A DNA stretch of 52,300 nucleotides from a virus (lineage: Duplodnaviria; Caudoviricetes): positions 1 through 52,300 of the IMG/VR virus record IMGVR_UViG_3300047476_000672; one strand, given 5' to 3'. The notes beneath the pieces are model-generated. The model saw nothing but the letters and a program-made list of their open reading frames with translations, was not told the origin of the DNA and ran no database searches. The position numbers and the translations under genes were made by a program. The first letter of the stretch is position 1. Every line of letters begins with the position of its first letter. This document shows positions 21,344-45,763 of the stretch, one piece after another.

Positions 21344-21454
21344 AAAAAAAAATCCCTGAAACGCTCCAACCGAATCAGGGACTTATCATGCTAAAAAAGG
21401 AAACTAAAACATGAAAAATATCTTACTGTCTGTTGGAGTGACAATGCAAATATA
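21344..21454 (-). promoter_or_regulatory. promoter plus leader RNA with 5' seed/terminator-loop pairing (copy B)
   Basis: TATATTTG 21454-21447; CTCCAAC 21438-21432; hairpin TCCCTGA/TCAGGGA with GTTGGAG in the loop; T9. Confidence 0.7.
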
Positions 21455-21496
21455 AATAAAAAATCATTCGTGGTTATTTTTTTTGAGTAAAAATTT

Positions 21497-21889
21497 TTAA
21501 TTCACCCATGAAGAATATCTTTCGTAGGCAGCCTGAGTAATAGATGAAAGATTGTTTTGTTCTATATCAAACTGTACGTTGATACCTGTACCGGCTGAGT
21601 TCATTACATATAAGCTGTCATCAGCTATAATGTAGGTAGAAGGTCTATATTCAATCTGTATTGGTAACTGTGGTAGTTCATCACCTTCCATTACTGCTTC
21701 GAGTACCTCTTCCCAAAAGTCATAGCATTCAAGTGAATCACTCCAATCAAATAGAGAAAGGAAATCTATTTCAAAACAGATTGCTTGCTGCTGTAAATCA
21801 GACGGTTTATCCATGTTATTGATAACCGCATCTACATATTTGTTGGGCAATTTTTCTAATAGCATTTCAAGTATTGTCATCTGATTCAT
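21497..21889 (-). CDS. acidic hypothetical protein
   Basis: 130 aa; FDWS...DFW motif. Confidence 0.7.
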   Translation of the reverse strand: MNQMTILEMLLEKLPNKYVDAVINNMDKPSDLQQQAICFEIDFLSLFDWSDSLECYDFWEEVLEAVMEGDELPQLPIQIEYRPSTYIIADDSLYVMNSAGTGINVQFDIEQNNLSSITQAAYERYSSWVN

Positions 21890-22086
21890 TTTATTACTAA
21901 TTTAATTATTAAATAAGAACTGGGCTTTGTAGTACGGAAACATATAGCAATTCACTAGACTTGAAATCTTTATTGAATAATGCTATTGCTTCAGCGTAAT
22001 CCTTAGCTTGAATGTTTACACCTGTGCACAATTCTTTGCCCACCATGTAACAGAAATGATAAATATTTTTTTTCATTTTTTATAAT

Positions 22087-22389
22087 TTAAAATTCACCGT
22101 AATTATACTCGTCATAGAAATCCCTTTCGTCTTTCTCATACTCATACCAGTCTATTGAATCATTGATATATTTCTCAACCTTTTCAAGTAAATCATCTGA
22201 TGGTGTAAATACAATGTAATCACCGATTTCATCGTCATACCTAGCAATATCAATGCTTTGAAGCTCTACATAATAGTCACTTGATATAGCATCAAATGTG
22301 CATTTATAATTTACATACTTAACTAGGTAATCTATTCCATCAATTGTTATTTCTTGCTCGTTTGAACTTCTATTGTCTAGCATAATCAT
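22087..22389 (-). CDS. acidic hypothetical protein
   Basis: 100 aa, D/E/Y-rich. Confidence 0.65.
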   Translation of the reverse strand: MIMLDNRSSNEQEITIDGIDYLVKYVNYKCTFDAISSDYYVELQSIDIARYDDEIGDYIVFTPSDDLLEKVEKYINDSIDWYEYEKDERDFYDEYNYGEF

Positions 22390-22561
22390 CTATTTACTTG
22401 ATACAAAATATTCTCTACTACTTCGCTCCAATTAGATGTTGTGTCATCTGCGTAAAAGCTTTCGTAGTTTTCCATAACGTACTGAATGTGGTCATCGTTA
22501 ACATACATATTAATGTTACTTGCCACGTTAATAACGTCTTGTCTATCTATGTGTCCCATAA

Positions 22562-22777
22562 CTATAAGTTTTTAAAGTGTTCTAAAAATTGTTCAAAGTT
22601 TTTATCGCTTGTGCCCATGCCGAATGATTCACCAGCTGCAAAAAATAATGATAATACTGCTTGTTCCCTTGCTAATAATAACAAATCAATTAGTTCAATT
22701 AGTTGTTCTTTAGTGTAACTCTCTTGCATTCTGTCTATACTTATGGAATGCATTAATGATTCTAGTGTTGTTTTCAT
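22562..22777 (-). CDS. hypothetical protein
   Basis: 71 aa ORF in operon. Confidence 0.6.
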   Translation of the reverse strand: MKTTLESLMHSISIDRMQESYTKEQLIELIDLLLLAREQAVLSLFFAAGESFGMGTSDKNFEQFLEHFKNL

Positions 22778-22779
22778 GG

Positions 22780-23145
22780 CTATTTATTTTCGTTGTACCA
22801 CTTAATGAATTCGCACACACAATGATAAGTTATACCAATCTTTTCGTTTACTTTATATCCTAGTAAAATTAATTCAGATAGCGAGTATGAAAACCTTAAT
22901 ACTCCAGTTCTTTCTCCTGTAATTATTTCTGTCTGAGTTTTATGAATTATTACTTCACATAGATTATTATTTGTTTTTTCAATATTCTCAACTACTGGCA
23001 TTAACCAATCCCATGAGGTATGGTATTTTAATTCGCTAGTCATGTATCCTTGTTCAAAGTAAATTCCGTCACTTCTCATCTCTTTTAATTCGCTGATATA
23101 ATCATCATCATTTTTGAATTTTAATCCCATAAACTCCGCAATCAT
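22780..23145 (-). CDS. conserved phage hypothetical protein
   Basis: IAEFMG...YHTSWDWLMPVVE...EFIKWYN. Confidence 0.75.
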   Translation of the reverse strand: MIAEFMGLKFKNDDDYISELKEMRSDGIYFEQGYMTSELKYHTSWDWLMPVVENIEKTNNNLCEVIIHKTQTEIITGERTGVLRFSYSLSELILLGYKVNEKIGITYHCVCEFIKWYNENK

Positions 23146-23168
23146 TGCGTTTTTCTCTTAAATTGTTT

Positions 23169-23510
23169 TCATGGCTCTATTATTTGATAATCGAATCCTA
23201 TTTCGTCCCAACCTGATGTTGGCTTTGTCCACTGGAATGATTCCGTATAAACGGCAACTACATTCATTAAATACTTTTCCTTTTCGGGGCGTTCTAAGAG
23301 TACTTTCTCTATTCCAGTAAGGTAATAGTCGTACCACTCATTAAAAACGTCCTGAACGTCCTCTTTGTAGAATAAAACGTCACCTGATTCCTTGTACATT
23401 TCCTCTTCGGTGATGTTAAGCTCAAACATTGTTCTTGCGTGAGCCAATTCTGATGCTAGTTCAATAATTCTTTCCATAGTTATTGTTTTATAGTTTTTCC
23501 ACTCCTTCAA
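23169..23510 (-). CDS. acidic hypothetical protein
   Basis: About 100-113 aa ORF in operon. Confidence 0.6.
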   Translation of the reverse strand: MKEWKNYKTITMERIIELASELAHARTMFELNITEEEMYKESGDVLFYKEDVQDVFNEWYDYYLTGIEKVLLERPEKEKYLMNVVAVYTESFQWTKPTSGWDEIGFDYQIIEP

Positions 23511-23718
23511 CGTCTGCGGCTACATCCATTGAGAACCATATTTGTTCGATTGTTGCGTCATTCCTCATTGTTGAGTGTAGTATATCCATTGCTGTATCTT
23601 CATCGCAATCGTAATTGTTCATTACATCGTCAATATGCCAAAGGTTATCTGTATAGTAACCGTATTTTTTAAGTATTAACTTTGCGTTTTCTACTTCTTC
23701 TTTTCTATTTTTTGCCAT
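23488..23718 (-). CDS. acidic hypothetical protein
   Basis: 76 aa; LWHIDDV...AMDIL. Confidence 0.65.
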   Translation of the reverse strand: MAKNRKEEVENAKLILKKYGYYTDNLWHIDDVMNNYDCDEDTAMDILHSTMRNDATIEQIWFSMDVAADVEGVEKL

Positions 23719-23721
23719 GTC

Positions 23722-23928
23722 TTATCTTTTTATTTGGTATTCGTTTTCTGTTACGTATTCAATTAAGGGAATAGGAATCCCTTTCTTGTATTGGTCAATT
23801 AATTCTAGGTCGCTAACTGTTCTGCTAAATGAAAGTGTTTGTTCATCTACAATTAATTCAACCATTACTGTATAAGCGAATTCGTTTATTGGTCGAATTG
23901 ACGCTAATTTAATTCTTGCTTGTTTCAT
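23722..23928 (-). CDS. hypothetical protein
   Basis: 68 aa. Confidence 0.6.
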   Translation of the reverse strand: MKQARIKLASIRPINEFAYTVMVELIVDEQTLSFSRTVSDLELIDQYKKGIPIPLIEYVTENEYQIKR

Positions 23929-23950
23929 ATTTAAAAGTGTTGATAGTGAA

Positions 23951-24838
23951 TTATGCTCCTAGACCCCATTCTTTTTTACAGTCATTACAGATAAAGCAAT
24001 TGTATTCGTGAAAGTAACTAGACTTTACATCTCTATCGCAGCAATCGCAACCGCTAACTTGATACTCTTCGTTCAATGCTTTGTCTGATTCCATGCACCA
24101 ATCGCATTTACCATTGTTTATCTCATTGATTCCGTATAGTTTTATATCGCAGTTAGTACATGAGTAAAAATCTTCTTCCTCATCTAGCCACATTGAACCT
24201 GCTGAATGATAAGTTGACTGTGTTTTGGGTGTGTACGCCCATGCGTTATATTGATTCTTGTAAACTTTTTTGCCTCCATAATCAACATAATTGTTTACTT
24301 GCTTATAAGATGAATTACTAAACCAACAATCCATATTCCAATGACCGGCTTTCTCGTTAACAATTCTGTATTCATTATCTGAATTAAGGAATACTAATTT
24401 AGAACCTTGACCTATATATAATTCAAGCATATCCATGATTACATCATTGTACTCAAATCCATCTTTCATATTCTTAAGTATTGTCTCATTGAACATATAA
24501 GTATCTGAAAAATCTTTGCTTGTTGGTACATCGTAAATCATTCCGTTATGGACAAAGCCTAAGTCATTATTAACTAAGAATGGGTGACAATTTGTTTTAT
24601 TTACCTTGCCATGAGTACTGATACGGAAATGTAAAACGATATTGTTTTTACCGTATTTTCTTTTGATGTCAATGTAGTTGGAATAAAAGTTCTCAAAAGA
24701 TTTCATTTCCTTGAACACTTGCATTTTGTTATTGTCAATGTAAAGTATTCCCGCACCATCGCCATTGTTTTCCCAACAGTTAGATAAAATATCTTTTGAT
24801 AATGTTGTTTTCTTCGTGTTTAAAATTGCTATACACAT
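23951..24838 (-). CDS. class II (Ntn) glutamine amidotransferase with C-terminal CxxC pairs
   Basis: N-terminal MC nucleophile, NGDGAG, HFRISTHG, NCHPF, HNG, SDT. Confidence 0.9.
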   Translation of the reverse strand: MCIAILNTKKTTLSKDILSNCWENNGDGAGILYIDNNKMQVFKEMKSFENFYSNYIDIKRKYGKNNIVLHFRISTHGKVNKTNCHPFLVNNDLGFVHNGMIYDVPTSKDFSDTYMFNETILKNMKDGFEYNDVIMDMLELYIGQGSKLVFLNSDNEYRIVNEKAGHWNMDCWFSNSSYKQVNNYVDYGGKKVYKNQYNAWAYTPKTQSTYHSAGSMWLDEEEDFYSCTNCDIKLYGINEINNGKCDWCMESDKALNEEYQVSGCDCCDRDVKSSYFHEYNCFICNDCKKEWGLGA

Positions 24839-24865
24839 GATTTCCTTTTTTAAAATGATTATTAA

Positions 24866-26353
24866 TTATGCACCTAGTTGGTTAGATGCGTTTTCTATTG
24901 TGTCAACTTTTACTTGTGACCTGATTAGTTTAGGTAATTGCTTATCGTTAAATGATTGACTATATTTTATGAACAATTCTACTTTGTCAATTAACTTTTC
25001 TTGTGAATATACAAGACGTAAATGTTTGTAAAGTTTACTCTTTGGATTCATCATCATTTGAAGTATTTCGATTTCGGATAAACCTTTGTAGTAAGATTCG
25101 AATCCTTTAATCTTTGTTTCTTTGATTGAAGAACACATGATACGTAGTAAATCCCTGCGCCACAATAAGTTAGTAACATTCTTTACTGCACTTGGTATTC
25201 TAAATTCAAGAACATTTGATTTGATATATACTGCTGAATACTTATCAGAAGAATATTTGTAGCTATGTTTCTTTCTTGCCTTAGAATAATTTGTTTCAAT
25301 CCTATGTTCATACATTGAATAGAACAATGGCAACCAACCTGATAAGTGTTCGAACAATGTTTCTGTATCGAATAAGCTAGAAGCTACATTGATATGACCG
25401 CCACATGAAGATGAAGTATTCGCATTGATTAATGTTTGCAAGTCTGAATCTTTAGCTATTTCGTCCTCAAGGTCTGATGAATAAAGGTCAAATGCTGGTG
25501 TTACAAGTTCGTATCCGCTACTGTCACAAAGAGAACCATCTTTTTCTTTAATCCAATCTGTTCTGTCGTAAAGGTCTTGATATTCTATTTCCACCGCATT
25601 ATCATCTTCCTTTTCTATTTCAAAACCAATTGAAAACTTAGGTGCTTCGTCAAATCTTTTTGTTCTTCTAAGGTCATGGTAACTAGCATTTTTTTCTATT
25701 GGATAGTCTTCATCAGTATACCATTCGTCATGACCTTCGTGGTATATTAAGCCATGATACCTAGCTGCGTCAGAATCCATATAGTTATCGCCATTTATTC
25801 TTAATGGTTGTCCGTAGCTCAATTGAAAATGTGTTTCATAGTCATGACCTTCTACATAACCGTAAAATACATCATCTCTATCTGTCTCAACCATTTCGCA
25901 ATGGTATTCAGAATAAGCAATATCTAGTTCACATTCTGTACTTTCAATGTATGTATTTCCATGTTTTGTTCTATAAACCTCATCAATTGGTGCGTATTCG
26001 TCATTAAGTGTAGCAAATTTACATTCGCTTTTCCAAGCATACTCACCGTTGTACATTTCAACAATAAGTTCGGGGTCTACATTCCTAACTATTTCGCCGT
26101 CATGTAGTACAAATTCATTTTCGAATTGCATAAATTTTTCGTTCCATTCTTGTATCGTTATTACCTGATATTCTTCTGACGGTTCACCAACACAATCTGA
26201 AAACATTACTTCATCGTCATATATGTAGAAACAGTTAACAGAATCTCCAGACCATGAATTGTTAGTCTTTCTGTTTATTAAATCAATGTAGCTTTGAAAC
26301 ATTTGTTTCTCACTAGAATTGAAATTTTCCGAGTTTAAAATTGCTATTTTCAT
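24866..26353 (-). CDS. putative amidoligase (COOH-NH2 ligase, glutamine synthetase/GCS2-like fold)
   Basis: IGFEIE, KDGSL, GYELVTP, SCGGHINV, KYSAV, LEFR motifs. Confidence 0.8.
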   Translation of the reverse strand: MKIAILNSENFNSSEKQMFQSYIDLINRKTNNSWSGDSVNCFYIYDDEVMFSDCVGEPSEEYQVITIQEWNEKFMQFENEFVLHDGEIVRNVDPELIVEMYNGEYAWKSECKFATLNDEYAPIDEVYRTKHGNTYIESTECELDIAYSEYHCEMVETDRDDVFYGYVEGHDYETHFQLSYGQPLRINGDNYMDSDAARYHGLIYHEGHDEWYTDEDYPIEKNASYHDLRRTKRFDEAPKFSIGFEIEKEDDNAVEIEYQDLYDRTDWIKEKDGSLCDSSGYELVTPAFDLYSSDLEDEIAKDSDLQTLINANTSSSCGGHINVASSLFDTETLFEHLSGWLPLFYSMYEHRIETNYSKARKKHSYKYSSDKYSAVYIKSNVLEFRIPSAVKNVTNLLWRRDLLRIMCSSIKETKIKGFESYYKGLSEIEILQMMMNPKSKLYKHLRLVYSQEKLIDKVELFIKYSQSFNDKQLPKLIRSQVKVDTIENASNQLGA

Positions 26354-26495
26354 CTTATTACCTTTTTTACTTTATACTTTTCCCTTTTACTTTCTTCGCT
26401 ATACATTCCATAGAAATACATAGCAAGTTCAACGGCATGATATTTTGTTTCCGCCATAATTAACCGTTGACTTTTGCCATTACTTACTAAATACA

Positions 26496-26735
26496 TTACA
26501 TATTTTTAAATGATTTTCCCCTACAATTATTCACGTTGAATAACTTTACCGCAATCCGGTGACGTTTCTGTTTTTTGTAGTGTTTTTTATAGTTAAAACC
26601 ATGTATCGGGTCAACATTGTTTGTTGTTGGTGCTGCATCTACTGCATAAGGCAATAGTAAAAATGCAATGGCTATTCCGTAGCCGATAATATACGCCCAA
26701 ACTTTGATGTCTTTGTTTTGATTTCCTTTTTTCAT
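26496..26735 (-). CDS. small membrane-anchored basic protein
   Basis: TM VWAYIIGYGIAIAFLLLPY. Confidence 0.55.
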   Translation of the reverse strand: MKKGNQNKDIKVWAYIIGYGIAIAFLLLPYAVDAAPTTNNVDPIHGFNYKKHYKKQKRHRIAVKLFNVNNCRGKSFKNM

Positions 26736-26746
26736 GTTGTTTATTT

Positions 26747-27016
26747 TTATAGATTATTACTTGCTTCTTCGTAGGTCTCGAAAAACATTTCTTTACGAGT
26801 TTCAAAGTCTATTGTTAAATACTCAACTTCTTGTCCCAACATTGAGCATATTGATATACCATTCTCAAGGGCAATGTAAGTGTATCCGCTATTCGGATTA
26901 AAGCCGATTTGCATAATTGATTCGCCTGAACAATTTTCAGCATAAGCATTGAAACAATTACTCAAACCTTTTGCCTCACAAAAAGCAATTGATTCATTTA
27001 AACCGATAATTTCCAT
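26747..27016 (-). CDS. hypothetical protein
   Basis: GFNPNSGYTYIALENG...E.FF.TYEEA. Confidence 0.7.
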   Translation of the reverse strand: MEIIGLNESIAFCEAKGLSNCFNAYAENCSGESIMQIGFNPNSGYTYIALENGISICSMLGQEVEYLTIDFETRKEMFFETYEEASNNL

Positions 27017-27027
27017 GATATTTATTT

Positions 27028-27210
27028 TTAATTATTAAACTGTTTCATCTTGCTATCTATGTATCCCAAAAATGACAATACAGATAAGCCCAAAGAGCCA
27101 TAGGATAACATAAAATTTTCAACGTATCCGAATATATTTACACCTACATTACTGAAAAATAAGGTAGTGCTAACAATCGCTAACACTACCGACAAGATTA
27201 AATATTTCAT
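27028..27210 (-). CDS. small two-TM protein
   Basis: 60 aa, hydrophobic. Confidence 0.6.
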   Translation of the reverse strand: MKYLILSVVLAIVSTTLFFSNVGVNIFGYVENFMLSYGSLGLSVLSFLGYIDSKMKQFNN

Positions 27211-27230
27211 TTCCTTTTTAGCTTGATTAA

Positions 27231-27602
27231 TTACTTTGTTGCGTAATATTTCTTAATTAATAAACACATTTCGTACACGCTGAAGCCCTCTTTTTGAGCA
27301 TTCTTTTCTGTTCTTAATGGTATTAAGTTTTTCGGCGTTAAATCGGCAACATTAAAGCCTTTTATACCTGCAAAAAATTCATCGCCGAATTCAATTACAC
27401 GCTTAATACAGTATGAAAAACTTTTCCCGTCTTGTTTATGCGCATTGTTTGTAGCATAAATTGCCGTCATTAAACTTTTTCCCGTTACTCCTTCATTAAG
27501 ATACCTTACTGCCTCTTTTGTTTTGTTGTTTACTACTTTTGTACCTTTTGCGATTTTAGTAGTAGTTACTTTTTTTCCGTTTGTTTTTACATTTGCTTTC
27601 AT
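27231..27602 (-). CDS. basic hypothetical protein, first gene of the leftward arm
   Basis: Start reassigned to MKANVKT at 27602; the tracked extension overlaps the ribozyme. Confidence 0.7.
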   Translation of the reverse strand: MKANVKTNGKKVTTTKIAKGTKVVNNKTKEAVRYLNEGVTGKSLMTAIYATNNAHKQDGKSFSYCIKRVIEFGDEFFAGIKGFNVADLTPKNLIPLRTEKNAQKEGFSVYEMCLLIKKYYATK

Positions 27603-27632
27603 AATAATTAAACTTAAATAGTTTAAATAATA

Positions 27633-27690
27633 AATTCCGTTTCGTCCTTTTGGACTCTTCAGGCAGGGCACTCACCCCACTACGGAAATT
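27633..27690 (-). ncRNA. hammerhead ribozyme, type III
   Basis: UUCCGU-A-GUGGGG-UGAGUG-CCCUGC-CUGAAGA-GUCC-AAAA-GGAC-GAAA-CGGAA: full core, three stems, GUA cleavage triplet. Confidence 0.93.
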
Positions 27691-27927
27691 AGTCTTACCG
27701 TCTTTTATACATTGCCGTTACACGTGATTAAGTGGCTGCATTTTTACCACAGTCTTTCGTTATTAATTACTCGCATTTCGCTTTCCAAAATAACTACTCA
27801 AGCCCTCGATTAAATGTACTTTATTAGTTATCGACTTTTATCGTATTAACATGCGGCTAATATGTCCCGCCCTCTACGCTTACCTAACCTTTCAAACATT
27901 TAGCGTTTCGCCGTTTGTTTGATGAAG

Positions 27928-27935
27928 CAAATATA
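27928..27935 (-). promoter_or_regulatory. -7 promoter box for the leftward (early) arm
   Basis: TATATTTG with an AT-rich upstream region. Confidence 0.6.
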
Positions 27936-28762
27936 AGAACATAAAATTTAATTAAACAAGAAAAAAATTAAAATTGTCAAAATAAAACGATAATTGCCTG
28001 AAAATCAATAAGTTATAATTCGATAAAAAATAGCTTGTAACCTAGAAAATAGGGTGAAATCGGGTTGAAGTTTTTAATTAAGCGCATTGAATGTTTACAC
28101 AAATAACAGTCAAAACTAGGTGATAAGATAGAAGAGTAGTACTCATAACCGTCTATAAATCAAGTAGTTAGGTCTATCTACTTAAAGCTTTGGATAAACT
28201 AAGCGAAGCTAATTAGCTGAAAGCTAGTAAGATATGTAAAGGAATATGAATGAATAGCTAACAAGCAAAGGGGCAAAGGGCAAACGGTGAAAGAAAGCCC
28301 GAAAAAAAGATAGTTAGCGCAATACATTTAGTATTTTCAGGGGTTCGGTTTTCCTTTTGAGAAGGGGAGGGGATATAGTACCACGAGTACTACCCTAAAA
28401 AACACATACTTTTTTCTGGACCGGAGGGTTATAGTTACGATATTGGCATATGGGGGTTAAATAAATAGGGGGAGGGATAGTAGTACTATAGGTTAGTATA
28501 TACGATATGAATATTTTTGTAGATTATCGTTTAAGGTTACGTTCCGTTAGTGTCGCTTCATTAGTCATTAGTCGGTATACTGCGTAACCGCCTAACGATA
28601 ATTACATCATTGATTTTCTCAAGTTGCACATGGGGAATAAACATATATAGGAGTTTTTTCTTAATTGATTGATTATTAATAAGTTAGGTGTGTAATTAGT
28701 GGTAACAGACTGTATCTAGCGATTAGTGGTAACACTTTAAAAGAAAAGTGTATTAATTTAAT

Positions 28763-28770
28763 TATCTTTG
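28763..28770 (+). promoter_or_regulatory. -7 promoter box for the rightward arm
   Basis: TATCTTTG 22 nt before the ATG at 28793. Confidence 0.55.
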
Positions 28771-28792
28771 CTTGTCTTATAAAAGGTTGTAT

Positions 28793-29633: not shown

Positions 29634-29635
29634 TT

Positions 29636-30655: not shown

Positions 30656-30689
30656 AAAATAGTATTTGTATAATTTGTAATTTTGAATT

Positions 30690-30869: not shown

Positions 30870-30982
30870 TGTTAGGAAAAATGTCAGGCGTAGACCCTAA
30901 GCTTGTAAAGAAAGCTTACGAGATAGCTCAAAAAGTAAAGAAGAGCAAACCAATGAAAAAAAGTAAAAACTGTAAAAAATAA
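30869..30982 (+). CDS. 37 aa basic peptide (not in ORF track)
   Basis: MLGKMSGVDPKLVKKAYEIAQKVKKSKPMKKSKNCKK. Confidence 0.45.
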   Translation: MLGKMSGVDPKLVKKAYEIAQKVKKSKPMKKSKNCKK

Positions 30983-30987
30983 TAGTT

Positions 30988-31218: not shown

Positions 31219-31220
31219 TT

Positions 31221-33942: not shown

Positions 33943-34682
33943 GCTGCTAGATTATTGAATATAAAATCGACTTCGTTTACCATATCGGCCATTTTAAATG
34001 TTTTGTACGTGTCGTTTTGTTCGTTAATCCAGCAAATGTATGAATTTCCTAATTTTAAATTGGTATTTTTTTCAACAATCTTCTTGTATATGGCTAATTG
34101 GAGTGAATATGTGTTGTATTCACACTCATGTAAATGGCCTAAACCATTAGTCATTCTGTTCTTGTATTTACTGTAGGTATTTATCTCTTTATTCGTCTTA
34201 TAATCCCATATCTGAAGCTCATTTGCCTTTACATTGTAGAATAATTGGTCTATCATTCCGCAAAGTAAAAGGTCTTCATCACCAATAATCATTTCTGAAC
34301 GTATAGGGATAAGCCTACCCTTAGAATCATCATGAAATTTGTCTATCATTGACCTTAATGCCATTGGTAAATCTTCTTCTGATGGCGAATAAACCTTGTT
34401 AGCAAACTTTAATTCAGCATATTTATGAGCATGAGTTCCTTTGATTATTGATGTAAGCCTTTTATCATCCCATTCTTTAACTACATCTTCATATTCAAGT
34501 CCATGTTTCAAAGAATACCTTGTGGCTTGTTCTTCTACGTCAAAATGTTTTTTGTATTTATTTATGATTGAAGTTGTTGATACACATTCTTTTCCGTTGT
34601 ACAGATACTTGTGATTGTCTTCCTCAAATAGTATTGAGTTGAACTTATCTAATTCTTCGAATACTTCAAACATACTCAACAA
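33939..34682 (-). CDS. PD-(D/E)XK (RecB-like) exonuclease
   Basis: GTHAHKYAE, CGMIDQL, IWDYKT, YSLQLAIY. Confidence 0.9.
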   Translation of the reverse strand: MLSMFEVFEELDKFNSILFEEDNHKYLYNGKECVSTTSIINKYKKHFDVEEQATRYSLKHGLEYEDVVKEWDDKRLTSIIKGTHAHKYAELKFANKVYSPSEEDLPMALRSMIDKFHDDSKGRLIPIRSEMIIGDEDLLLCGMIDQLFYNVKANELQIWDYKTNKEINTYSKYKNRMTNGLGHLHECEYNTYSLQLAIYKKIVEKNTNLKLGNSYICWINEQNDTYKTFKMADMVNEVDFIFNNLAA

Positions 34683-34950
34683 GTGTTTCTTCCAAAAGTT
34701 CTGCTACAGCTTCCTCAGCTTCTAAATCTTCTTCTTCGTCAAATGGTTTAAATCTGTTTGAAAGATAATACTGGAACTTTGATTCGGGATGAATATTCTT
34801 TCCAGCAAGTTTGTATCCTTTGATGTTTCTTTGACGAATAAGCGTTACACATTCATCAACTTCATAAACTTCACCACTCTTAATCCAATCACCAATAAAG
34901 CCATCTGGCTTGTACTTATCATTGATGCAAATAACTTTAAAACTTTCCAT
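34666..34950 (-). CDS. hypothetical protein
   Basis: KVICIND...GEVYEV...RFKP, SH3-like pattern. Confidence 0.7.
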   Translation of the reverse strand: MESFKVICINDKYKPDGFIGDWIKSGEVYEVDECVTLIRQRNIKGYKLAGKNIHPESKFQYYLSNRFKPFDEEEDLEAEEAVAELLEETLVEYV

Positions 34951-34955: not shown

Positions 34956-35057
34956 AAAAAAAAATAGCCTCAGCGAATGCAGTACCGAGGCTAAACCTAA
35001 TGTGTGGAAACTATCATCAAAGCAAATACCAGTCTGCATTACTGTGATACAAATTTA
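34956..35057 (-). promoter_or_regulatory. promoter plus leader RNA with 5' seed/terminator-loop pairing (copy C)
   Basis: TAAATTTG 35057-35050; AATGCAG 35040-35034; hairpin TAGCCTCG/TGAGGCTA with CTGCATT in the loop; T9; ATG at 34950. Confidence 0.7.
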
Positions 35058-35099
35058 GATATTGTTTTTTAATTTCCAAACAAAAGGCTAAAAAATTTA

Positions 35100-35245
35100 A
35101 TAAAGAAAAAAAGAAAAAGAAAAAATAAAGAAAGAAAGAAAAGAAGCAAAAGAAAGAAAGAAAAAGATAGTCTATATTTCGAATATATATAAATATATAT
35201 TCTCATATATCCTATCAAAAAAGAAAAAGAAAAAAAGAAACAACC
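35100..35245. repeat. polypurine A/G tracts flanking an AT palindrome
   Basis: (AAAG)n-like tracts; GAATATATAT-AA-ATATATATTC at 35181-35202. Confidence 0.8.
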
Positions 35246-36156: not shown

Positions 36157-36177
36157 TCATATTTTGATTATATTTGC

Positions 36178-36210
36178 AGGGTAGGGGATTAATTTCCTCT
36201 ACCCTTATTT
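36178..36210 (+). terminator. intrinsic terminator-like hairpin
   Basis: AGGGTAGGGGA-ttaatt-TCCTCTACCCT followed by TATTT. Confidence 0.65.
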
Positions 36211-36217
36211 AGTAAAT

Positions 36218-36790: not shown

Positions 36791-36791
36791 T

Positions 36792-38999: not shown

Positions 39000-39034
39000 T
39001 TAATTACTAATTTTGAAACCAAATAACAACTTAT

Positions 39035-40234
39035 ATGGAAGATAACTTCGAAAAAGAGTTGGAAAGAGTTGCTGAAACGTCAGCTCCAGAGATTGATTTT
39101 GAAGGTTTAGATTTGCCGGCTGATATGGCTGAACAAATCAGACAGATTGAGTCTTTGGCGCAGATTGATTCTGAATTCGCCAATTCACAAGAGTACAAAG
39201 ACTTGATGGCTAGTATTTCTAATAGCGGTCAAGCATCAAAGTCTAATTCAGAGGAAGAGGACGAAGATGAAGAATACGATGAGGAAGAAGAGGAAGAAGA
39301 TGAGGAAGAGTCTGTTGATTCTGATGACATTTTTGGAATCTTAAAATCACCTAAGAAGGAGAAGGAAGTAAAACTTTCTTTTGAGCCTCCTAAAGAGATG
39401 GTTAAAATGCTTTCTTCTAAGTATGGAATTGAAGACGCAAGTAAGTTCTTTGCTTCTGTAGATACATGGAGAAATCAGGCACAAGAGGGTTCTGAGATTA
39501 AGAGAGAATATGAAGCTCTTACTGAAGACCTTCAATCGTTACCTGCTGATATACGTACACAAATTCAATTGTGGGCAAATGGTGAAGACCATACACAATT
39601 TATGAATGTTCAACAAAGACTGGACTTCTCATCAGATTTCGATGACCAAGAAATTGACGGATTAGTTCAGCACTATCTTCCTGAACAGTATAATAAATTG
39701 ACTCGTTCTCTTGAGAATGGTGATATTGATGAAGCTGATTTTGAGGATAGAATAACTTTGTTAGCAGAGTCTACTAAACGAATGTTTATTGAAGACAAAA
39801 AAGCGTTAGAGGCCGAGCGTGAGCAGTTTATTGAACGTCAAAAAAATCAGTTTCAAAATCTGAAAAAGACGGCACTGCTTTCCGTGGAGAATCTAAGTAA
39901 GGCTTACCCTAACTTCAGCAAGTCGGAGATTAATAAAATCCGGAGCGTCTTGGTTGAGGGGAAGATAGACAGTTTGTTTACGAAGTCTGACGGAACATAC
40001 AATGAAGATGCAGCTGAATTGGTTGCTTACGCAATGTATGGAAAGAAGATGTTAGAATCTGTTAGAAAGATATCTGAACGAAAAGGAGAAAGTAAGGCTA
40101 ATCAGAAGATAGTCGACTCTAGTCCTAAGACAGTTAAAAAACAAAAGGCCGCTGGTGGAAACCAAGGTCTTGGAATGGAAGCTGTAGGACACTTGAGTGG
40201 AGTATTTAAAGGAGACCCTTACGCAAGTAGGTAA
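39035..40234 (+). CDS. acidic scaffolding-like protein
   Basis: Poly-E/D tract and coiled coils; between portal and MCP. Confidence 0.65.
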   Translation: MEDNFEKELERVAETSAPEIDFEGLDLPADMAEQIRQIESLAQIDSEFANSQEYKDLMASISNSGQASKSNSEEEDEDEEYDEEEEEEDEEESVDSDDIFGILKSPKKEKEVKLSFEPPKEMVKMLSSKYGIEDASKFFASVDTWRNQAQEGSEIKREYEALTEDLQSLPADIRTQIQLWANGEDHTQFMNVQQRLDFSSDFDDQEIDGLVQHYLPEQYNKLTRSLENGDIDEADFEDRITLLAESTKRMFIEDKKALEAEREQFIERQKNQFQNLKKTALLSVENLSKAYPNFSKSEINKIRSVLVEGKIDSLFTKSDGTYNEDAAELVAYAMYGKKMLESVRKISERKGESKANQKIVDSSPKTVKKQKAAGGNQGLGMEAVGHLSGVFKGDPYASR

Positions 40235-40257
40235 TGTAAAATTTAAAAACAAAAACG

Positions 40258-41493
40258 ATGGCGTTATACAATGACACAACGGCAAAGTTCACGAATCAAA
40301 ACTTAAACTCAGTTGGTTCTGAATATGCTAATCTTTACGGTCACGATTTGTCCCTATTGGTACAAAAGTTGACTAACCGTGCAATCTTTGATGCTGCTCC
40401 TCAGCAGTTCATGGATTTGAAATTATTGAACATGGTATCTCCTGAGCAAGTTAACTCTGACGAGTTCTTCTTCCAAGAGATGGCTTATCAGCGTGAGCCT
40501 CTAGTGGCAATTGCTGGTGCTGCTGGTGTTGCATACCCTGCTACACAAACAATCTCTGTTCAATCTGTAGACAATATTGCTACTAACACAATCATCTCTT
40601 ACCCTAATGGTCAGAAAGGTAGTGTTACTGCTGTAGATACTACTAACTTGACAGTAACTGTAACTCCTTACAACGGAGATACTTTGCCAGCTGTAAATGC
40701 TGACGATATTCTTGCTAACGTATCTTCTGTAGATTACGATGGTTCTGAAGGTTTCGCTCAGTACTTCCGCGCTTCTACAATTGAGCGTTCTAACTACGTT
40801 CAGTTGTTCAACAAGGCTATCCGTTACTCTGAAGTAGAGCTTCACAAGTTGAAAAACCAAGGAACTACTTCTAACTTCCTTGAAATGGAGAAAGCTGCGA
40901 TGTTTAACCAACACCGTATTGATATCTCTAACGCATTCTGGACTGGTCAAAAAGGTGAAATCATCACTCAGAACGGAACTCCTGCTAAAACAACTGGTGG
41001 TGTTTACACTTCTATGTTGGAAGCTGGTGCTCCTAACGCTTTGGCTACTACAGCTACGTTGGTAGATGCATTCGAAGATGTAGTATTATCTTCTGAATAT
41101 GGTGATTACGGTACTACTCGTATGGCGTTCATGACTCCACGTACACACCGTGCTCTTTCTTTGGCTTACAAAGAAGAATTGACTCGTTACCAACCTAACG
41201 ATGAAATCGCTTTGTTGAACTTGAAAGAAGTTAACCTTGGTTCTTCTCGTATCGTTCTTGTACCATTCAAGCGTTTCGAAGACCGTGCATCATTCCCTGG
41301 TTCTTTCGAGAACAAAATTGTTATCCTTGATATGAAAAACATCAAGCGTACACAACTTTGGGGTGAGCGTTCTGGAGATACTCTTAAATTAGAGGATGGA
41401 GTTCCTAAGCGTTATGGTGATGTTTGGGTTGATTGTAACATGGGTGTTAAAATGCACAACCCACTTGCGTGTGCATGGGTAGACATCGCATAA
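40258..41493 (+). CDS. major capsid protein (HK97 fold)
   Basis: 411 aa; NYVQLFNKAI, HRIDISNAFWTGQK, KTTGGV; strong codon bias; terminator follows. Confidence 0.85.
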   Translation: MALYNDTTAKFTNQNLNSVGSEYANLYGHDLSLLVQKLTNRAIFDAAPQQFMDLKLLNMVSPEQVNSDEFFFQEMAYQREPLVAIAGAAGVAYPATQTISVQSVDNIATNTIISYPNGQKGSVTAVDTTNLTVTVTPYNGDTLPAVNADDILANVSSVDYDGSEGFAQYFRASTIERSNYVQLFNKAIRYSEVELHKLKNQGTTSNFLEMEKAAMFNQHRIDISNAFWTGQKGEIITQNGTPAKTTGGVYTSMLEAGAPNALATTATLVDAFEDVVLSSEYGDYGTTRMAFMTPRTHRALSLAYKEELTRYQPNDEIALLNLKEVNLGSSRIVLVPFKRFEDRASFPGSFENKIVILDMKNIKRTQLWGERSGDTLKLEDGVPKRYGDVWVDCNMGVKMHNPLACAWVDIA

Positions 41494-41519
41494 TCAATAC
41501 CGATTAGCATAAATCATTT

Positions 41520-41551
41520 GGGGAGGGGCAAATAACTCCTCCCCTTATTTT
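41520..41551 (+). terminator. intrinsic terminator after MCP
   Basis: GGGGAGGGG-caaataa-CTCCTCCCC followed by TTATTTT. Confidence 0.75.
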
Positions 41552-41564
41552 AAATAATAACAAG

Positions 41565-42449
41565 ATGGCAATAGAGAAAAAAACAACAAAAAAAGACTTG
41601 AAGTTTGAAGGTAATCAGACATCAAGCAGCGTAGATTTTGATTTAAAATTAGGCCCATTTTCGCCAAATTCGAAAGAAGATGTGAAGCCTAAAGCTGAGA
41701 AGACAGTGTCTGAGGTTGCACACACAGAGGATATGTTTCCTGAAGTAGAAAGAGGTGAAATTAAACCTGAACCAAAAGAAGAGGCTGTGCCGTTATCTAT
41801 CGTTCAAAAGATGATGGAAGAGATGCAGCAAAAGTTTATGAATCAAATCAACAAAATCAAATTCGACAAAAATAAGAGCGAGCTTGATAGTGATTTAGAT
41901 TATGTTAGAGACCTTGAGGATGATTGGATGGAGAATCCTGCAATATTTTTTGCGTTTTCTTTAAACTTTTCAATCCACGGTGATAAGAAACGTGGTGCTG
42001 AAAGTATTCCACCTCAGGGGCCTATCCGTTTCCAACCATTGATTCGTACAAAACGTAAGGGTCAACGTGGTGTTCAAGTAGTATCTGTATCTTCTGTTAA
42101 AGTACATTCTAAAGAAGTGGCTGAATACTTACGAGGCCATAGTCAATATGGAATTGCTTTCTATGAGAATATGGATTCTGCATTGAATGTTGATTCTACA
42201 TGGGCACAAAAAATGATTGAAGCACAGCAGTCTATTAGTAGATTATCTGATTTACAAGTAGTTGCAAGAGCAAAACAAGAAGGGATGTCTGTATCTCAAA
42301 GTCCTGAGGCAATGCGTAAGCAGTTAGTGGAAATTACTGCTAAACGTCAAATTGCTCAACAAGACAATATGTTATACGGGTCTCTTCGTAAAGCTACAGT
42401 TGATAAGACTGGTAGAGAGATTATAGAAAAAACAATTCCTAATTACTAA
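41565..42449 (+). CDS. hypothetical protein downstream of MCP
   Basis: 294 aa; position matches the conserved post-MCP gene of crAss-like phages. Confidence 0.6.
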   Translation: MAIEKKTTKKDLKFEGNQTSSSVDFDLKLGPFSPNSKEDVKPKAEKTVSEVAHTEDMFPEVERGEIKPEPKEEAVPLSIVQKMMEEMQQKFMNQINKIKFDKNKSELDSDLDYVRDLEDDWMENPAIFFAFSLNFSIHGDKKRGAESIPPQGPIRFQPLIRTKRKGQRGVQVVSVSSVKVHSKEVAEYLRGHSQYGIAFYENMDSALNVDSTWAQKMIEAQQSISRLSDLQVVARAKQEGMSVSQSPEAMRKQLVEITAKRQIAQQDNMLYGSLRKATVDKTGREIIEKTIPNY

Positions 42450-42451
42450 TT

Positions 42452-43210
42452 ATGTTTACGGCATTAGAACTAAGAAATCAACTAGCCTTTGCATTAGATG
42501 CTGAAGGTTCTGACCATTATCGTGATGATTTAGATTATATCCCTGCGATTAATGCAGCGATGAAGTGGTTGACTTCTATTGTTAATGCCGCATACGGACA
42601 AGGTAAGATAGGTGAAGAGTTTTTTAGAGAATTGTCATACTCTGGGGTTTTTCAAACAAGTATTAACTCCAGAGTATCTCTTGACATCTTCCCATCTGAA
42701 GTGTGGAGTATATTAGCAGTATATGTAAATCCTGATGTTCAGGTTAATACAGGTATGCCTGTTCCTAATACTCCAGATGTTTACAGAAGTTATTATTTGA
42801 GTAACCTTACTCATTTATCAGCATCTTATAGTTGCAAAAGACTTAATGTTGAGGAGTGGGCTGTAAATAAAGTTAATCCATTTGAAGCTGGATTTGATGC
42901 AGAATATGTATGTGATGATTTAAAAAGATACGCATATATATCTCCGCTTAATTACAATGGAGTTTCAGAAGGATTCTTGTCTCAGGAAATAGAGATAAGA
43001 CCAAAGTTATCAAACAAAAAAGTTACTATCTTTTGGGTTAAGAAACCGGATAAGATTGTAAATATTACCGATGAGATTGGATTCCCTAATAGTGTATTCC
43101 AATTGTTATTCAATAAAGCATTGTTCTACATTAGCTTTAAACAAGGTGATGGAACAACTATTAATTCTGTTTCAAATGCAGATATTCAGCAACTATTAGA
43201 CGTATTATAA
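42452..43210 (+). CDS. putative head-tail adaptor/ring protein
   Basis: AINAAMKWL N-terminal helix, IEIRP...WVKKP, position. Confidence 0.55.
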   Translation: MFTALELRNQLAFALDAEGSDHYRDDLDYIPAINAAMKWLTSIVNAAYGQGKIGEEFFRELSYSGVFQTSINSRVSLDIFPSEVWSILAVYVNPDVQVNTGMPVPNTPDVYRSYYLSNLTHLSASYSCKRLNVEEWAVNKVNPFEAGFDAEYVCDDLKRYAYISPLNYNGVSEGFLSQEIEIRPKLSNKKVTIFWVKKPDKIVNITDEIGFPNSVFQLLFNKALFYISFKQGDGTTINSVSNADIQQLLDVL

Positions 43211-43211
43211 G

Positions 43212-43946
43212 ATGGCAACGTATAGATATGTAGTTTACGATTTAGAAAAGAGCTTAAACGCATCATTTGACGATGCTGACTTTACGTTTCCTCAAATAAT
43301 GTATTGGGTAACAGTAGTTGCCAATAGGTTACGTGTAGAACATAATAATTTAACTAATTCTGATTTATTTACGTCTACATTTCATTCTGTTCCTGTTTTA
43401 ACAGATGAAAAAGGAAGAAAGTACATAGACTTACCGGCACAGATAATGGATTTACCAAATAATGCTGGTGTAGTTTATATTACATATAATTATGAAACCT
43501 GTAAGTGCGATGGGCCTATGTTTGCTCAGAAGTTCTTTCAGCCTGTAAATGTTGGAGCTGTTCAGCATTTATATCTTGATGAATATACAAAACCATCTGT
43601 TAGTAATCCTTATTTCTACAGAATAGGACACATGGTTAATAACAATGGTGTAAATAGAATTTACCTTCTTGGCGTTGAATGTATATCAATTGAAGATGTA
43701 GAAATTGCTATTAAGGCAAGCATTGACCCAATGAAGATATGTGATTTGGATGAGCAAGTTCCTCTTCCAGATGAAAGAATACAAGAACTTATAAATGAGG
43801 TACTTAAACTTGGTAAATTCATTATGATGATGCCTACAGAGGGAATCAATGATGGTGAAGATTCAAGTAAGATTGCTAATCAGTATTCTGCTCGTGGAGC
43901 TACGTTATCTGATTTATCTGCTCAACAACAAGGACAAACTGAATAA
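43212..43946 (+). CDS. putative tail ring protein
   Basis: MATYRYVVYD...C.LDEQVPLP pattern, position. Confidence 0.55.
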   Translation: MATYRYVVYDLEKSLNASFDDADFTFPQIMYWVTVVANRLRVEHNNLTNSDLFTSTFHSVPVLTDEKGRKYIDLPAQIMDLPNNAGVVYITYNYETCKCDGPMFAQKFFQPVNVGAVQHLYLDEYTKPSVSNPYFYRIGHMVNNNGVNRIYLLGVECISIEDVEIAIKASIDPMKICDLDEQVPLPDERIQELINEVLKLGKFIMMMPTEGINDGEDSSKIANQYSARGATLSDLSAQQQGQTE

Positions 43947-43951
43947 TAGAT

Positions 43952-44722
43952 ATGAAGGCAAACGATTTCGTAAGTATAGAGCATATTTTAGCTGAAGTTA
44001 CTACTACCTTAGATGACAAGGAATTTAAGAAGGGATTCCCTAAAGGATGGTACATATCTCGTATTCAGGATGCTATGCAGGAGTTATCATTTGATACATT
44101 CTGGCTGACTATCCAAAAGGATTATGAGATGCCTAAGAATGGCCAGATAGAAATGCCAACTAATGTATTCAATATCAGAGAGATATATTTGTATACTGGT
44201 TCACTATGTAACCCTAATAAGACTCAAGTAGTTTATTGGAAGCGTCATTTTAACAATACATCTGATGGTACAGGATATACTGCCCGTGTAAAAGATGACG
44301 GAAGTAATGGTGGGGATATTTATCAGCCTAACCAGCGTATTTATTCTCGTAACATGGAAGGATTCTATGGTCCAAAGTTTTACTACAATGTAAACAATGG
44401 GCTTATGATGTTTAGTAAAGAATGTACTTCATTCCCTTACATACGTATTATATTCAATGGTATGGGTGTAGAGAATGGTGACTTGCCTATTATACCACGA
44501 TTCTTTGAAAGAGCTGTTGTTGAATATGTTGAGGAGCGATTCTATAATGCAATGAAAGCAAGAGACCCAAGAATCTATAGAGTTCTTTGGAGTGATGCAT
44601 ATGCGAGATTGAACGACCCTGTAAACGGTGGTTGGAATAAGGCTCGTAAGCGTATTAAGGCTATGGATTCTCAAGAGAAAGAATCTATGGAAGAATATAT
44701 CTCGAGTATGTTCCATAAATAA
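43952..44722 (+). CDS. putative tail tubular/ring protein
   Basis: FVSIEHIL...NGDLPIIP...AVVEYV pattern, position. Confidence 0.55.
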   Translation: MKANDFVSIEHILAEVTTTLDDKEFKKGFPKGWYISRIQDAMQELSFDTFWLTIQKDYEMPKNGQIEMPTNVFNIREIYLYTGSLCNPNKTQVVYWKRHFNNTSDGTGYTARVKDDGSNGGDIYQPNQRIYSRNMEGFYGPKFYYNVNNGLMMFSKECTSFPYIRIIFNGMGVENGDLPIIPRFFERAVVEYVEERFYNAMKARDPRIYRVLWSDAYARLNDPVNGGWNKARKRIKAMDSQEKESMEEYISSMFHK

Positions 44723-44728
44723 TATTTT

Positions 44729-45019
44729 ATGTTAGACAAGAAATCAATGCCATGTAATAAGCCACGTAAGTCACCTAATCCTAAAAAGAAGAAGGTGGTT
44801 AAGGCTTGTCAGAATGGTCAAGAAAAGATAATTCATTTTGGTGCTACTGGATATGGTCATAACTATTCATCAGCAGCAAGAAAGTCATTTAAAGCACGGC
44901 ACAATTGTTCAACAGCTACAAGCAAACTTACTGCTCGTTATTGGGCTTGTAAGAATCTATGGGCAGGAAAAGGTGGTGATACACAAAGCTCACCAAGTAA
45001 TAGAAGAGGTAAATATTAA
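44729..45019 (+). CDS. small basic conserved viral protein
   Basis: IHFGATGY...RKSFKARH.C...TARYWACKNLW. Confidence 0.7.
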   Translation: MLDKKSMPCNKPRKSPNPKKKKVVKACQNGQEKIIHFGATGYGHNYSSAARKSFKARHNCSTATSKLTARYWACKNLWAGKGGDTQSSPSNRRGKY

Positions 45020-45022
45020 TTT

Positions 45023-45211
45023 ATGACACCAAAGAATATTAAGAGAAAGCCAGTAGGTCTTGGAGATACTATTGCATCAGTTACTAAAGCTACTGGTATT
45101 GATAAAGTAGCTAAATTTGTTGCTAAAGCAGCAGGTAAAGAAGACTGCGGATGCAAAAAGAGACAAGATAAATTGAATAAGAAATTTCCTTATAGAAGTA
45201 ATAACAGATGA
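45023..45211 (+). CDS. small conserved phage protein
   Basis: GLGDTIA..TKATGI...DCGCKKRQDKLN. Confidence 0.7.
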   Translation: MTPKNIKRKPVGLGDTIASVTKATGIDKVAKFVAKAAGKEDCGCKKRQDKLNKKFPYRSNNR

Positions 45212-45213
45212 AA

Positions 45214-45666
45214 CTAGGTATTTATTGATTCTAATAATTTATTATATGCATTATGTGCCTCTTCTCTTGTTTTGAACCTTCCTATTCTTCTTGATTTTCC
45301 ATTAATAAAAATCCACTTTTCATATCTAGTGCATTTTTTTAATTTTATTTCTTTTATTGGCTTGTCAGATAAATAGTGTATGGTATTCTCTCTGCTGGTT
45401 ACCCATTCTAAATTTTCAACTCTATTATCTGTTTTTATACCATTTATATGATTTACAATTTCTTTATTTTGTTTTTTTTCTAAAAAATGGCTAGAAACTA
45501 TCCTATGTACAGATACTTGCTTTCTATTTATTGTAACTCTTTCATATCCCCTGTTACTAACATTTTTCTTTAAAATTCTTTCTGCAAAAACAGAATATAT
45601 ATTTCCAAAATTAGAAACTCTATACATTCCATTTGTTCCATCAATATCTTTCCAAATTTCTTCCAT
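45214..45666 (-). CDS. free-standing NUMOD4-HNH homing endonuclease with AP2-like tail
   Basis: EIWKDI..Y.VSNFG (NUMOD4); VHRIV..VNHINGIKTDNRVENLEW (HNH); IGRFKTREEAHNAY. Confidence 0.9.
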   Translation of the reverse strand: MEEIWKDIDGTNGMYRVSNFGNIYSVFAERILKKNVSNRGYERVTINRKQVSVHRIVSSHFLEKKQNKEIVNHINGIKTDNRVENLEWVTSRENTIHYLSDKPIKEIKLKKCTRYEKWIFINGKSRRIGRFKTREEAHNAYNKLLESINT

Positions 45667-45671
45667 AAAAC

Positions 45672-45763
45672 AAAAAACCCCATGAATCGGAGGTGGTAGA
45701 CTCTTCATCATAGGGATTTACTAATTTCTTAAAATGCTGCTACCACACAACAAAACAAAGATA
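45672..45763 (-). promoter_or_regulatory. promoter plus leader RNA with 5' seed/terminator-loop pairing (copy A)
   Basis: TATCTTTG 45763-45756; GTGGTAG 45746-45740; hairpin CCCTATGA/TCATGGGG with CTACCAC in the loop; T6; ATG at 45666. Confidence 0.7.

Follow-up and report, generated by a model that had tools for sequence, protein, structure and literature searches.

The DNA analyzed here (the window) is the whole of the virus record IMGVR_UViG_3300047476_000672 (Duplodnaviria; Caudoviricetes), 52.3 kilobases (kb) in length with 34.6% G+C. Three short segments on its minus strand, at 21344-21454 (site 1), 34956-35057 (site 2), and 45672-45763 (site 3), share one architecture and are referred to below as leaders. 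Each consists of a TAnnTTTG box, a 7-mer (the seed) that starts 8-9 nucleotides (nt) further on, an AT-rich spacer, and a GC-rich hairpin that carries the exact complement of the seed in its loop and is followed by a run of six to nine T residues. The leaders had been picked out in an earlier note made from the sequence alone, and the strand, coordinates, letters, exact loop complements, and T6-T9 runs given there all hold. Some of its measurements were revised. The seed does lie near the box but at 8-9 rather than 9-10 nt, seed and hairpin are 50, 40, and 24 nt apart at sites 1, 2, and 3 instead of 40-60 nt, and the hairpins have stems of 7-10 base pairs (bp), not 7-8 bp.

A scan against Pfam and PHROGs agrees with the claim that a nuclease gene lies downstream of all three leaders. 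A NUMOD4/HNH_3 endonuclease gene (45214-45666) directly follows site 3, an open reading frame (ORF) of 94 amino acids (aa; 34666-34950) and then a PD-(D/E)XK exonuclease gene follow site 2, and an HNH gene (20709-21065) is located ~280 nt downstream of site 1. At sites 2 and 3 the ATG follows the T-run after 5 nt, as had been described for two of the copies, the upstream neighbour gene is divergent, and the only promoter-like box upstream is the one that precedes the leader. Because the start codon lies 5 nt past the T-run, with no room for another promoter, and the sole box precedes the leader, the genes at sites 2 and 3 can be reached only by read-through.

In the available parts of two reports, TAnnTTTG is described as the -7 box of the primary sigma factor of the Bacteroidota (PMC7366714, PMC9723704), and in Flavobacterium psychrophilum it occupies -12 to -5 relative to the transcription start site (PMC9723704). 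A box scan found the motif before many gene starts in the window and at all three leader sites, and because of this promoter type the host is probably a member of the Bacteroidota. No near DNA relative of the window and no relative of its 735-aa protein were found among cultured phages. The exonuclease has relatives among cultured phages, which include Flavobacterium, Prevotella, and Bacteroides phages and are all <30% identical.

The seed forms the loop (7-9 nt) of a small 5′ hairpin (H1) flanked by ATTGTC/GACAGT, CAGT/ACTG, and TGTTG/CAGCA at sites 1, 2, and 3, respectively, and its complement lies in the apical loop of the terminator-like hairpin (H2). Because the seed sits in one loop and the complement in another, the contact is modelled as a loop-loop (kissing) helix, which comprises exactly 7 bp at each of the three sites without any extension. 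The pairing of 5′ bases with the terminator loop had thus been recognized before under the name of a pseudoknot; a kissing loop between two hairpins is the better term, and the position of the seed in the loop of H1 had been missed. At sites 1 and 3, H2 is two-tiered: the lower stem of 7-8 bp opens into an internal loop, above which comes an upper step of 2-3 bp (CG/CG at site 1, GAG/CTC at site 3), and the complement makes up the apical loop of 7-8 nt.

Site 1 begins with the box TATATTTG (21447-21454), which predicts a transcript start (+1) at G21442. Its H1 (ATTGTC/GACAGT, 21425-21445 in the minimum free energy (MFE) fold) has the loop aCTCCAACa with the seed CTCCAAC at 21432-21438, 8 nt after the box. 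The spacer contains a middle hairpin (21386-21414) that is present in the MFE and centroid folds, and H2 (21353-21381) combines a 7-bp lower stem and a 15-nt loop, within which the CG/CG upper step carries the 7-nt apical loop GTTGGAG (21364-21370); a T9 run (21344-21352) follows. A second copy of CTCCAAC on the same strand (21293-21299), 44 nt past the T-run, could compete with H1 for the loop of H2. The 280-nt gap between the terminator of site 1 and the HNH gene also contains a perfect 18-bp hairpin followed by TTTCTATC (21109-21149, minus strand).

At site 2 the box TAAATTTG (35050-35057) predicts a +1 at A35045. H1 (CAGT/ACTG, 35030-35044) has a 7-nt loop that is the seed AATGCAG itself (35034-35040, 9 nt after the box), and H2 (34965-34993) is a 10-bp stem including G-U pairs with the 9-nt loop aCTGCATTc (complement at 34976-34982) and a T9 run (34956-34964), 5 nt before the ATG of the 94-aa ORF. 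A polypyrimidine tract of ~100 nt made of CTT/CTTT repeats (35070-35175, minus-strand reading) lies just upstream of this promoter. It is kept in the relatives L002-L019, adjoins an (AT)n repeat in L004-L007, and could be an origin or an UP-like element.

At site 3 the box TATCTTTG (45756-45763) predicts a +1 at G45751. H1 (TGTTG/CAGCA, 45735-45752) has the loop tGTGGTAG with the seed GTGGTAG at 45740-45746, 9 nt after the box. H2 (45678-45715) has an 8-bp lower stem and a 22-nt loop that comprises an internal loop, the GAG/CTC upper stem, and the apical loop tCTACCAC (complement CTACCAC at 45693-45699), and a T6 run (45672-45677) separates it from the 5 nt that precede the ATG of the HNH gene.

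By the box-position rule of F. psychrophilum, the predicted RNAs would measure 99, 90, and 80 nt (sites 1-3) to the end of the U-run, with H1 beginning at +1 or +2. The calculated energies at sites 1, 2, and 3 are 0, -0.9, and -3.2 kcal/mol for H1, -13.7, -14.0, and -12.9 kcal/mol for H2, and -8.9, -7.1, and -9.1 kcal/mol for the 7-bp kiss duplex, and the folds of the three leaders have z-scores of -4.4, -2.1, and -2.0. Overall, the prediction that the terminator's apical loop pairs with the 5′-most ~12 nt of the RNA appears robust. Judged by structure, all three sites are predicted intrinsic terminators, with a GC-rich stem of 7-10 bp followed by T9, T9, and T6. A strict scan of the genome (perfect stem of at least 6 bp, then T5 or more) returned five terminators, all on the minus strand, and those with loops of at least 9 nt (9, 15, and 22 nt) are exactly the three sites. 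A further promoter-proximal hairpin, which has no kissing partner, lies on the plus strand at 36169-36215, where GGGTAGGGGA/TTCCTCTACCC begins 3 nt past the box TATATTTG and leads into a U-rich tail and then an ATG; relatives have T6 after this hairpin.

The complementarity was compared with 20,000 dinucleotide-preserving shuffles per leader, scored for a 7-mer complement of the terminator loop. A complement anywhere in the leader occurred with P = 0.0031, 0.0226, and 0.0079 at the three sites (joint 5e-7), and the joint value for a complement at an offset of 5-12 was ~3e-9. Such matches at this position are therefore not equally frequent in shuffled controls, a comparison that the earlier note had proposed as a check on itself. 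A second comparison covered 43 distinct terminators with loops of at least 7 nt from the window and 80 related loci (L001-L080), which include kin loci and are not all independent. Twelve of the 43 have an upstream complement of at least 7 nt, versus 2.2 ± 1.4 (maximum 7) in 200 shuffles and 0-2 in the reverse, complement-only, and same-sense controls. A 400-kb Flavobacterium sample (G003) served as a genome control: a loop complement was found at 15 of 137 large-loop terminator-like sites, mostly composed of A/T runs, and a box-linked complement (box at most 12 nt before) at none of the 137, whereas in the window three of the four large-loop sites have a complement and all three are box-linked. 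The joint shuffle probability together with this genome control excludes chance as the origin of the loop complementarity.

The same data bear on the view that the complementarity exists only at the DNA level, as a product of chance, as the inverted repeats of a mobile insertion, or as a dyad bound by a protein, with no role for the RNA. Site 3 lies in a mobile HNH cassette and short inverted repeats are common at insertion borders, and this view is nevertheless very improbable. In addition to the shuffle probabilities and the Flavobacterium control, which speak against chance, the letters vary between sites and between orthologues while the pairing is kept, which a sequence-specific protein site would not permit, and one arm always lies in the hairpin loop before the T-run, on the coding strand of the downstream gene. 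A single terminator-like hairpin of the Flavobacterium sample (L347, near position 15824 of the plus strand) has the 9-nt loop complement AGTGATATG upstream and a T7 run, with no TAnnTTTG near the seed; it may reflect loop pairing in a host or have arisen by chance.

Relatives of the exonuclease were collected from IMG/VR (80 loci kept of 138 confirmed). The 94-aa ORF is present in 41 of the 80, and 40 of these have enough upstream DNA to judge. In 28 of the 40 loci the ORF is preceded by the box and a seed and then by a large-loop terminator that holds the complement in its loop, with at least nine different loop pairs at this one promoter: AATGCAG, GCGATAAAG, GCGATG, GTTAGGA (including one variant with a single mismatch), ATACGG, GTGCAG, ATGCAG, TGGTTGG, and AGAAATTGG, the last of which was identified by eye in L042/L044. 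Only in this L042/L044 type is the T-run weak; all other kissing types keep it. L008 and L009 have the H2 stem and flanks in common, and their seeds and loops differ by matched changes. Between the window, L002, and L003 the spacer varies in sequence and length and the pairing of H1, kiss, and H2 is kept. A conserved structured block of ~150 nt (GTTCCCGAAGTACAAGGGATCGTAGG...) together with one to three tRNA-like genes is inserted between the 94-aa ORF and the exonuclease gene in L027-L040; Rfam calls only a tRNA in this block, in L028.

Matched changes were also found among relatives of the site 3 gene in viral contigs, which are 35-54% identical to it. Two of these loci (L081 and L102) are homologous to site 3 and keep the loop flanks GAGt...CTC, and their loop pairs (GTGGAAG/CTTCCAC and GTTGAGG/CCTCAAC) differ from that of site 3 (GTGGTAG/CTACCAC) by one and three matched double changes, respectively. 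Further loop pairs occur in the HNH relatives L087/L088 and L153/L155. Over all families, 19 different loop pairs were read. The covariation was taken from an anchored comparison; MAFFT alignments of the HNH-type and L069-type leaders align the closest members only. In 13 of the 15 compared rows that have a box, the seed begins 4-10 nt downstream of it, which would correspond to +1 to +7 if transcription starts at box+5 (rule from the available part of PMC9723704). Taken together, the comparisons indicate that the design is real and is kept with differing letters in related phages, and they strengthen the claim that the geometry is conserved while the letters change. Searches around the other two copies added little: no orthologue of site 1 was found, its upstream 130-aa protein having no relatives in viral contigs, and a pattern built on its terminator stem gave only two chance matches in GC-rich coding DNA. 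A search with the loop-flank pattern of site 3 returned only the L081 contig again (L161), L162 (with the same 7-mer as L081), and one chance match.

The link between the leader and nucleases is weak. The leader is carried by 6 of 80 HNH relatives from viral contigs, by 2 of 80 from metagenome contigs (L179 and L202), and by none of 80 from genome contigs, 15 of which are labelled Bacteroidota. In relatives the leader also stands before the 94-aa ORF, which is functionally uncharacterized, and in the families of L069-L079 the same design, with H1 stems of 8 bp, heads ORFs of 64-80 aa. The tie appears loose because the leader also heads ORFs that do not encode nucleases and most HNH relatives are without it. 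Of the earlier suggestion that an attenuator dampens toxic genes, the attenuator is thus favoured on layout and the toxic-nuclease part loses ground.

The reading that we favour, with a rough probability of 55%, is that the leader acts as a promoter-proximal attenuator of the downstream genes. It is favoured because of the layout at sites 2 and 3, where the genes are accessible by read-through only, and because of the near-universal U-run. Each site would be the self-contained head of a transcription unit, in which a host-type Bacteroidota sigma-A promoter (TAnnTTTG) drives a non-coding leader of 80-100 nt that is composed of H1, the AT-rich spacer, and an intrinsic terminator (H2 and U-run), with the next start codon 5-14 nt further on. 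Within the first ~12 nt of the RNA the loop of H1 would emerge, and its 7-bp kiss with the apical loop of H2 would close the leader into a compact knot. Most polymerases would halt at the U-run and release a short RNA, and only the read-through fraction would get to the downstream nuclease or recombination genes, so that the attenuator would set the dose, and perhaps the timing, of their expression.

How the kiss might tune termination can be pictured in several ways. We lean toward a role in which it locks the fold of the terminator and shields the 5′ end. Locking may keep foreign flanks from disturbing the fold, an advantage to a cassette that moves, and the 5′ end may be tucked away from 5′-end-dependent decay. 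Alternatively, the kiss may delay the terminator stem or prevent it from being completed, by analogy with the guanidine-IV riboswitch. The linkers of 24-50 nt should let kiss and full stem coexist without a steric clash, by our estimate rather than by computation. As conservation is limited to the geometry and does not extend to the sequence, a regulator could respond only to shape or to a physical condition; none was identified among the 10 ORFs scanned against Pfam and PHROGs.

Several observations weigh against attenuation by the kiss. H2 is stable alone (-12.9 to -14.0 kcal/mol) and has no obvious need for a partner, and H1, at 0 to -3.2 kcal/mol, is marginal in the window. The predicted transcript of site 1 includes only ~3 bp of the H1 stem, roughly half of which lies upstream of the start, and at site 2 the MFE fold favours a different, longer 5′ hairpin in which part of the seed is buried. 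Among the 40 orthologous loci, eight (L027, L028, L031, L032, L040, L046, L051, and L052) have a different terminator leader that lacks a complement of at least 6 nt, and in four (L004-L007) only ~20 nt separate the same TAACTTTG promoter from the ATG of the same gene, with no leader between them. Because 12 of the 40 loci are without a kiss of at least 6 nt, the kiss is dispensable for the gene. The occurrence of promoter and gene without the leader in L004-L007 also speaks for the attenuator, in that it shows the leader to be an added control module and not part of the gene. Furthermore, no convincing copy was found in the cultured Flavobacterium phage FpV4, which was scanned whole, and a hairpin with a U-run just before a start codon could serve translation instead of termination.

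The last point leads to a possible, if unlikely, alternative in which the module acts on the read-through mRNA, as a structured 5′ cap that protects against 5′-end-dependent decay and licenses translation. The kiss would stop the pyrimidine-rich loop of H2 from pairing with the start-codon region, and only transcripts from the leader's own promoter, with a free 5′ seed, would be translated. A promoter-dependent unmasking of the start region is known from homing-endonuclease genes of phage T4, and the position of H1 at +1 or +2 of the predicted RNA would suit such a cap. Moreover, 7 of 25 distinct kissing elements have a complement of the H2 loop of at least 7 nt within 60 nt downstream, compared with a mean of 1.06 (maximum 5) in 500 shuffles. 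Matches of 7-9 nt, namely GATATGGA in L011/L014/L016, TGGAAGA in L081, AGTATGGTT in L036, and TGTATGG in L059, cover or abut the start codon and overlap the loop segment used by H1. Because of this overlap, H1 and the start region would compete for the H2 loop in these six loci, which suggests a three-way switch there. The seven elements represent only ~4-5 independent families, however, and in the window a downstream copy is present at site 1 only, where it is not at the start codon, and is absent from sites 2 and 3. In addition, the U-run conserved immediately behind a GC-rich stem is a requirement of terminators and not of a 5′ cap. The second contact supports a translational side in some phages and does not explain sites 2 and 3.

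The layout that argues for the attenuator also bears on whether the 80-100-nt terminated RNA might itself be the product, a stable decoy or regulator with both ends locked, with gene expression as a by-product of leaky termination. A promoter plus a strong terminator are given as hallmarks of intergenic small RNAs in Bacteroides in the available part of one report (PMC7366714), the seed lies at the extreme 5′ end, and the fold is compact (z-scores as above). This is quite unlikely, as both loops would be consumed by the internal kiss and the spacer, the only free part, is the least conserved (window versus L002 versus L003), so that no conserved exposed sequence is left for a target. Furthermore, a start codon served by no other promoter always follows the element at 0-14 nt, and the gene also occurs without the leader (L004-L007).

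A tentative and unlikely extension of the attenuator joins the terminator to the start-codon contact in a switch that senses the origin of the transcript. Only RNAs from the leader's own promoter would present the seed at a free 5′ end, and the resulting kiss would set termination and, in some relatives, unmask the start codon. A private 7-nt address for each copy would avoid cross-talk and recombination, and mobile nuclease cassettes would spread the unit between phages.

Several other identities were considered and rejected. The loops of L008 and L009 end in ACCA and resemble a tRNA-like acceptor, an ending that other types do not have. A hepatitis delta virus-like or other ribozyme is rejected on the lack of an Rfam match and on the small size of the loops, and a replication-primer RNA, suggested by the polypyrimidine tract beside site 2, on the lack of such a tract at sites 1 and 3. 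An antisense attenuator of the pT181 type, which would call for a counter-transcript promoter inside the leader, is not supported by the TAnnTTTG box scan, as no plus-strand box of this type occurs inside 21344-21454, 34956-35057, or 45672-45763; the nearest plus-strand TAnnTTTG box, at 45777, points away from the site 3 leader.

The failure of the earlier note to recognize a named motif is matched by Rfam 15, which gave no match at the three sites, either at the gathering score or at E up to 10, and no leader match in 19 other kiss-bearing loci that were searched. In these searches, which also took in L028 with its kiss-less leader, only tRNA reaches the threshold. Full-text searches of the literature (main texts, not supplements) found no description of such a leader. 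A related layout is known from phage lambda, where a strong promoter (PR′) is followed by a terminator (tR′) within ~100-200 nt and yields the short 6S RNA until read-through is released by Q. The promoter-proximal terminator that gives a short RNA until read-through is allowed is the shared feature. Lambda differs in that its read-through depends on the Q protein, on a DNA site that Q binds, and on a sigma-dependent pause, and it is not known to pair the 5′ end with the terminator loop. No antiterminator was found among 10 ORFs (of ~85) scanned against Pfam and PHROGs, a scan in which a Q-like protein or a sigma-dependent pause was not specifically sought.

The closest topology is that of the guanidine-IV (mepA motif) riboswitch, in which the loop of a 5′ hairpin kisses the loop of a hairpin that grows into an intrinsic terminator and thereby decides between termination and read-through (available part of PMC11611296). 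The likeness extends to the pairing of a 5′ hairpin loop with the loop of a terminator hairpin. As described there, guanidine-IV has conserved loops, a guanidine-dependent kiss, and a short linker through which the kiss blocks the terminator stem, so that the two folds are mutually exclusive. The phage leaders, in contrast, have seven Watson-Crick pairs of free sequence, no visible ligand pocket, a linker of 24-50 nt, and nuclease or recombination genes. The Rfam model of guanidine-IV gave no match at the three sites or in the 19 other kiss-bearing loci, and the downstream genes (HNH endonucleases, a 94-aa ORF, and a PD-(D/E)XK exonuclease) are not the guanidine exporters or carboxylases associated with that riboswitch.

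Three further systems share single features with the leaders, as far as their published accounts are available. The free-standing HNH gene mobE of phage T4 has a Rho-independent terminator at its 5′ end, which lowers the transcript level and occurs only in phages that bear the gene (PMC2790892). It is a precedent for the limitation of a phage HNH homing-endonuclease gene by a terminator, as is proposed for the leaders; in the available text, however, mobE has no promoter of its own and its terminator, which lies inside the ORF and has a 4-nt loop, is given no partner hairpin. The abortive transcripts of the T7 phi10 promoter have first bases that are complementary to the RNA of terminator T-phi and alter its efficiency (PMC2952870), which resembles the leaders in the complementarity of the first transcribed bases to a downstream terminator. 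According to that account the T7 pairing acts in trans on 5-6 nt within the 5′ half of the stem and results in antitermination, whereas the complement in the phage leaders lies in the loop of the same molecule. In conjugation operons of the pLS20 family, a zipper-type attenuator contains a leader segment complementary to the terminator region (PMC13401043). Complementarity sets the choice of termination there, and the design is kept across mobile elements while the sequence varies. The zipper is described as a long stem that grows at the expense of the terminator, with mutually exclusive folds; the contact in the phage leaders would be loop-loop and compatible with the terminator stem.

Both attenuators in leaders and riboswitches with kissing loops are known; a ligand-free leader that conserves only a freely varying 7-bp kiss between the first bases of the transcript and its terminator loop is absent from Rfam 15. 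The leaders represent a real, covarying, and uncatalogued RNA design, with an attenuator function suggested by the layout. To our knowledge, Bacteroidota hosts lack Shine-Dalgarno control and the gene regulation of their phages is almost unexplored. Uncultured Bacteroidota phages show the design repeatedly, with many different addresses. Should termination or translation be tuned by the kiss, the leader would offer a compact, orthogonal, and easily re-addressed RNA part for the Bacteroidota and a model for how selfish nuclease cassettes stay tolerable to their phage.

Two other features of the window concern structured RNAs. A region of ~1 kb between two gene blocks (27690-28680) is without an ORF of at least 50 aa and contains C-rich repeats and two minus-strand TAnnTTTG boxes (28118 and 27935). 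The box at 27935 (TATATTTG) would start a leader of ~330 nt that ends, ~30 nt before an ATG at 27600, in a candidate type III hammerhead ribozyme (27634-27688, minus strand). The candidate scores 37.1 bits (gathering score 48.5), and its core is intact (CUGAAGAG ... CGAAAC, with a GUA cleavage triplet). Finally, an 89-nt tRNA with the anticodon UUA (9084-9172, minus strand) is called tRNA-Stop by ARAGORN, reaches 35 bits with the tRNA model of Rfam, and may be an ochre suppressor; the ORFs of the genome nonetheless read normally under table 11.

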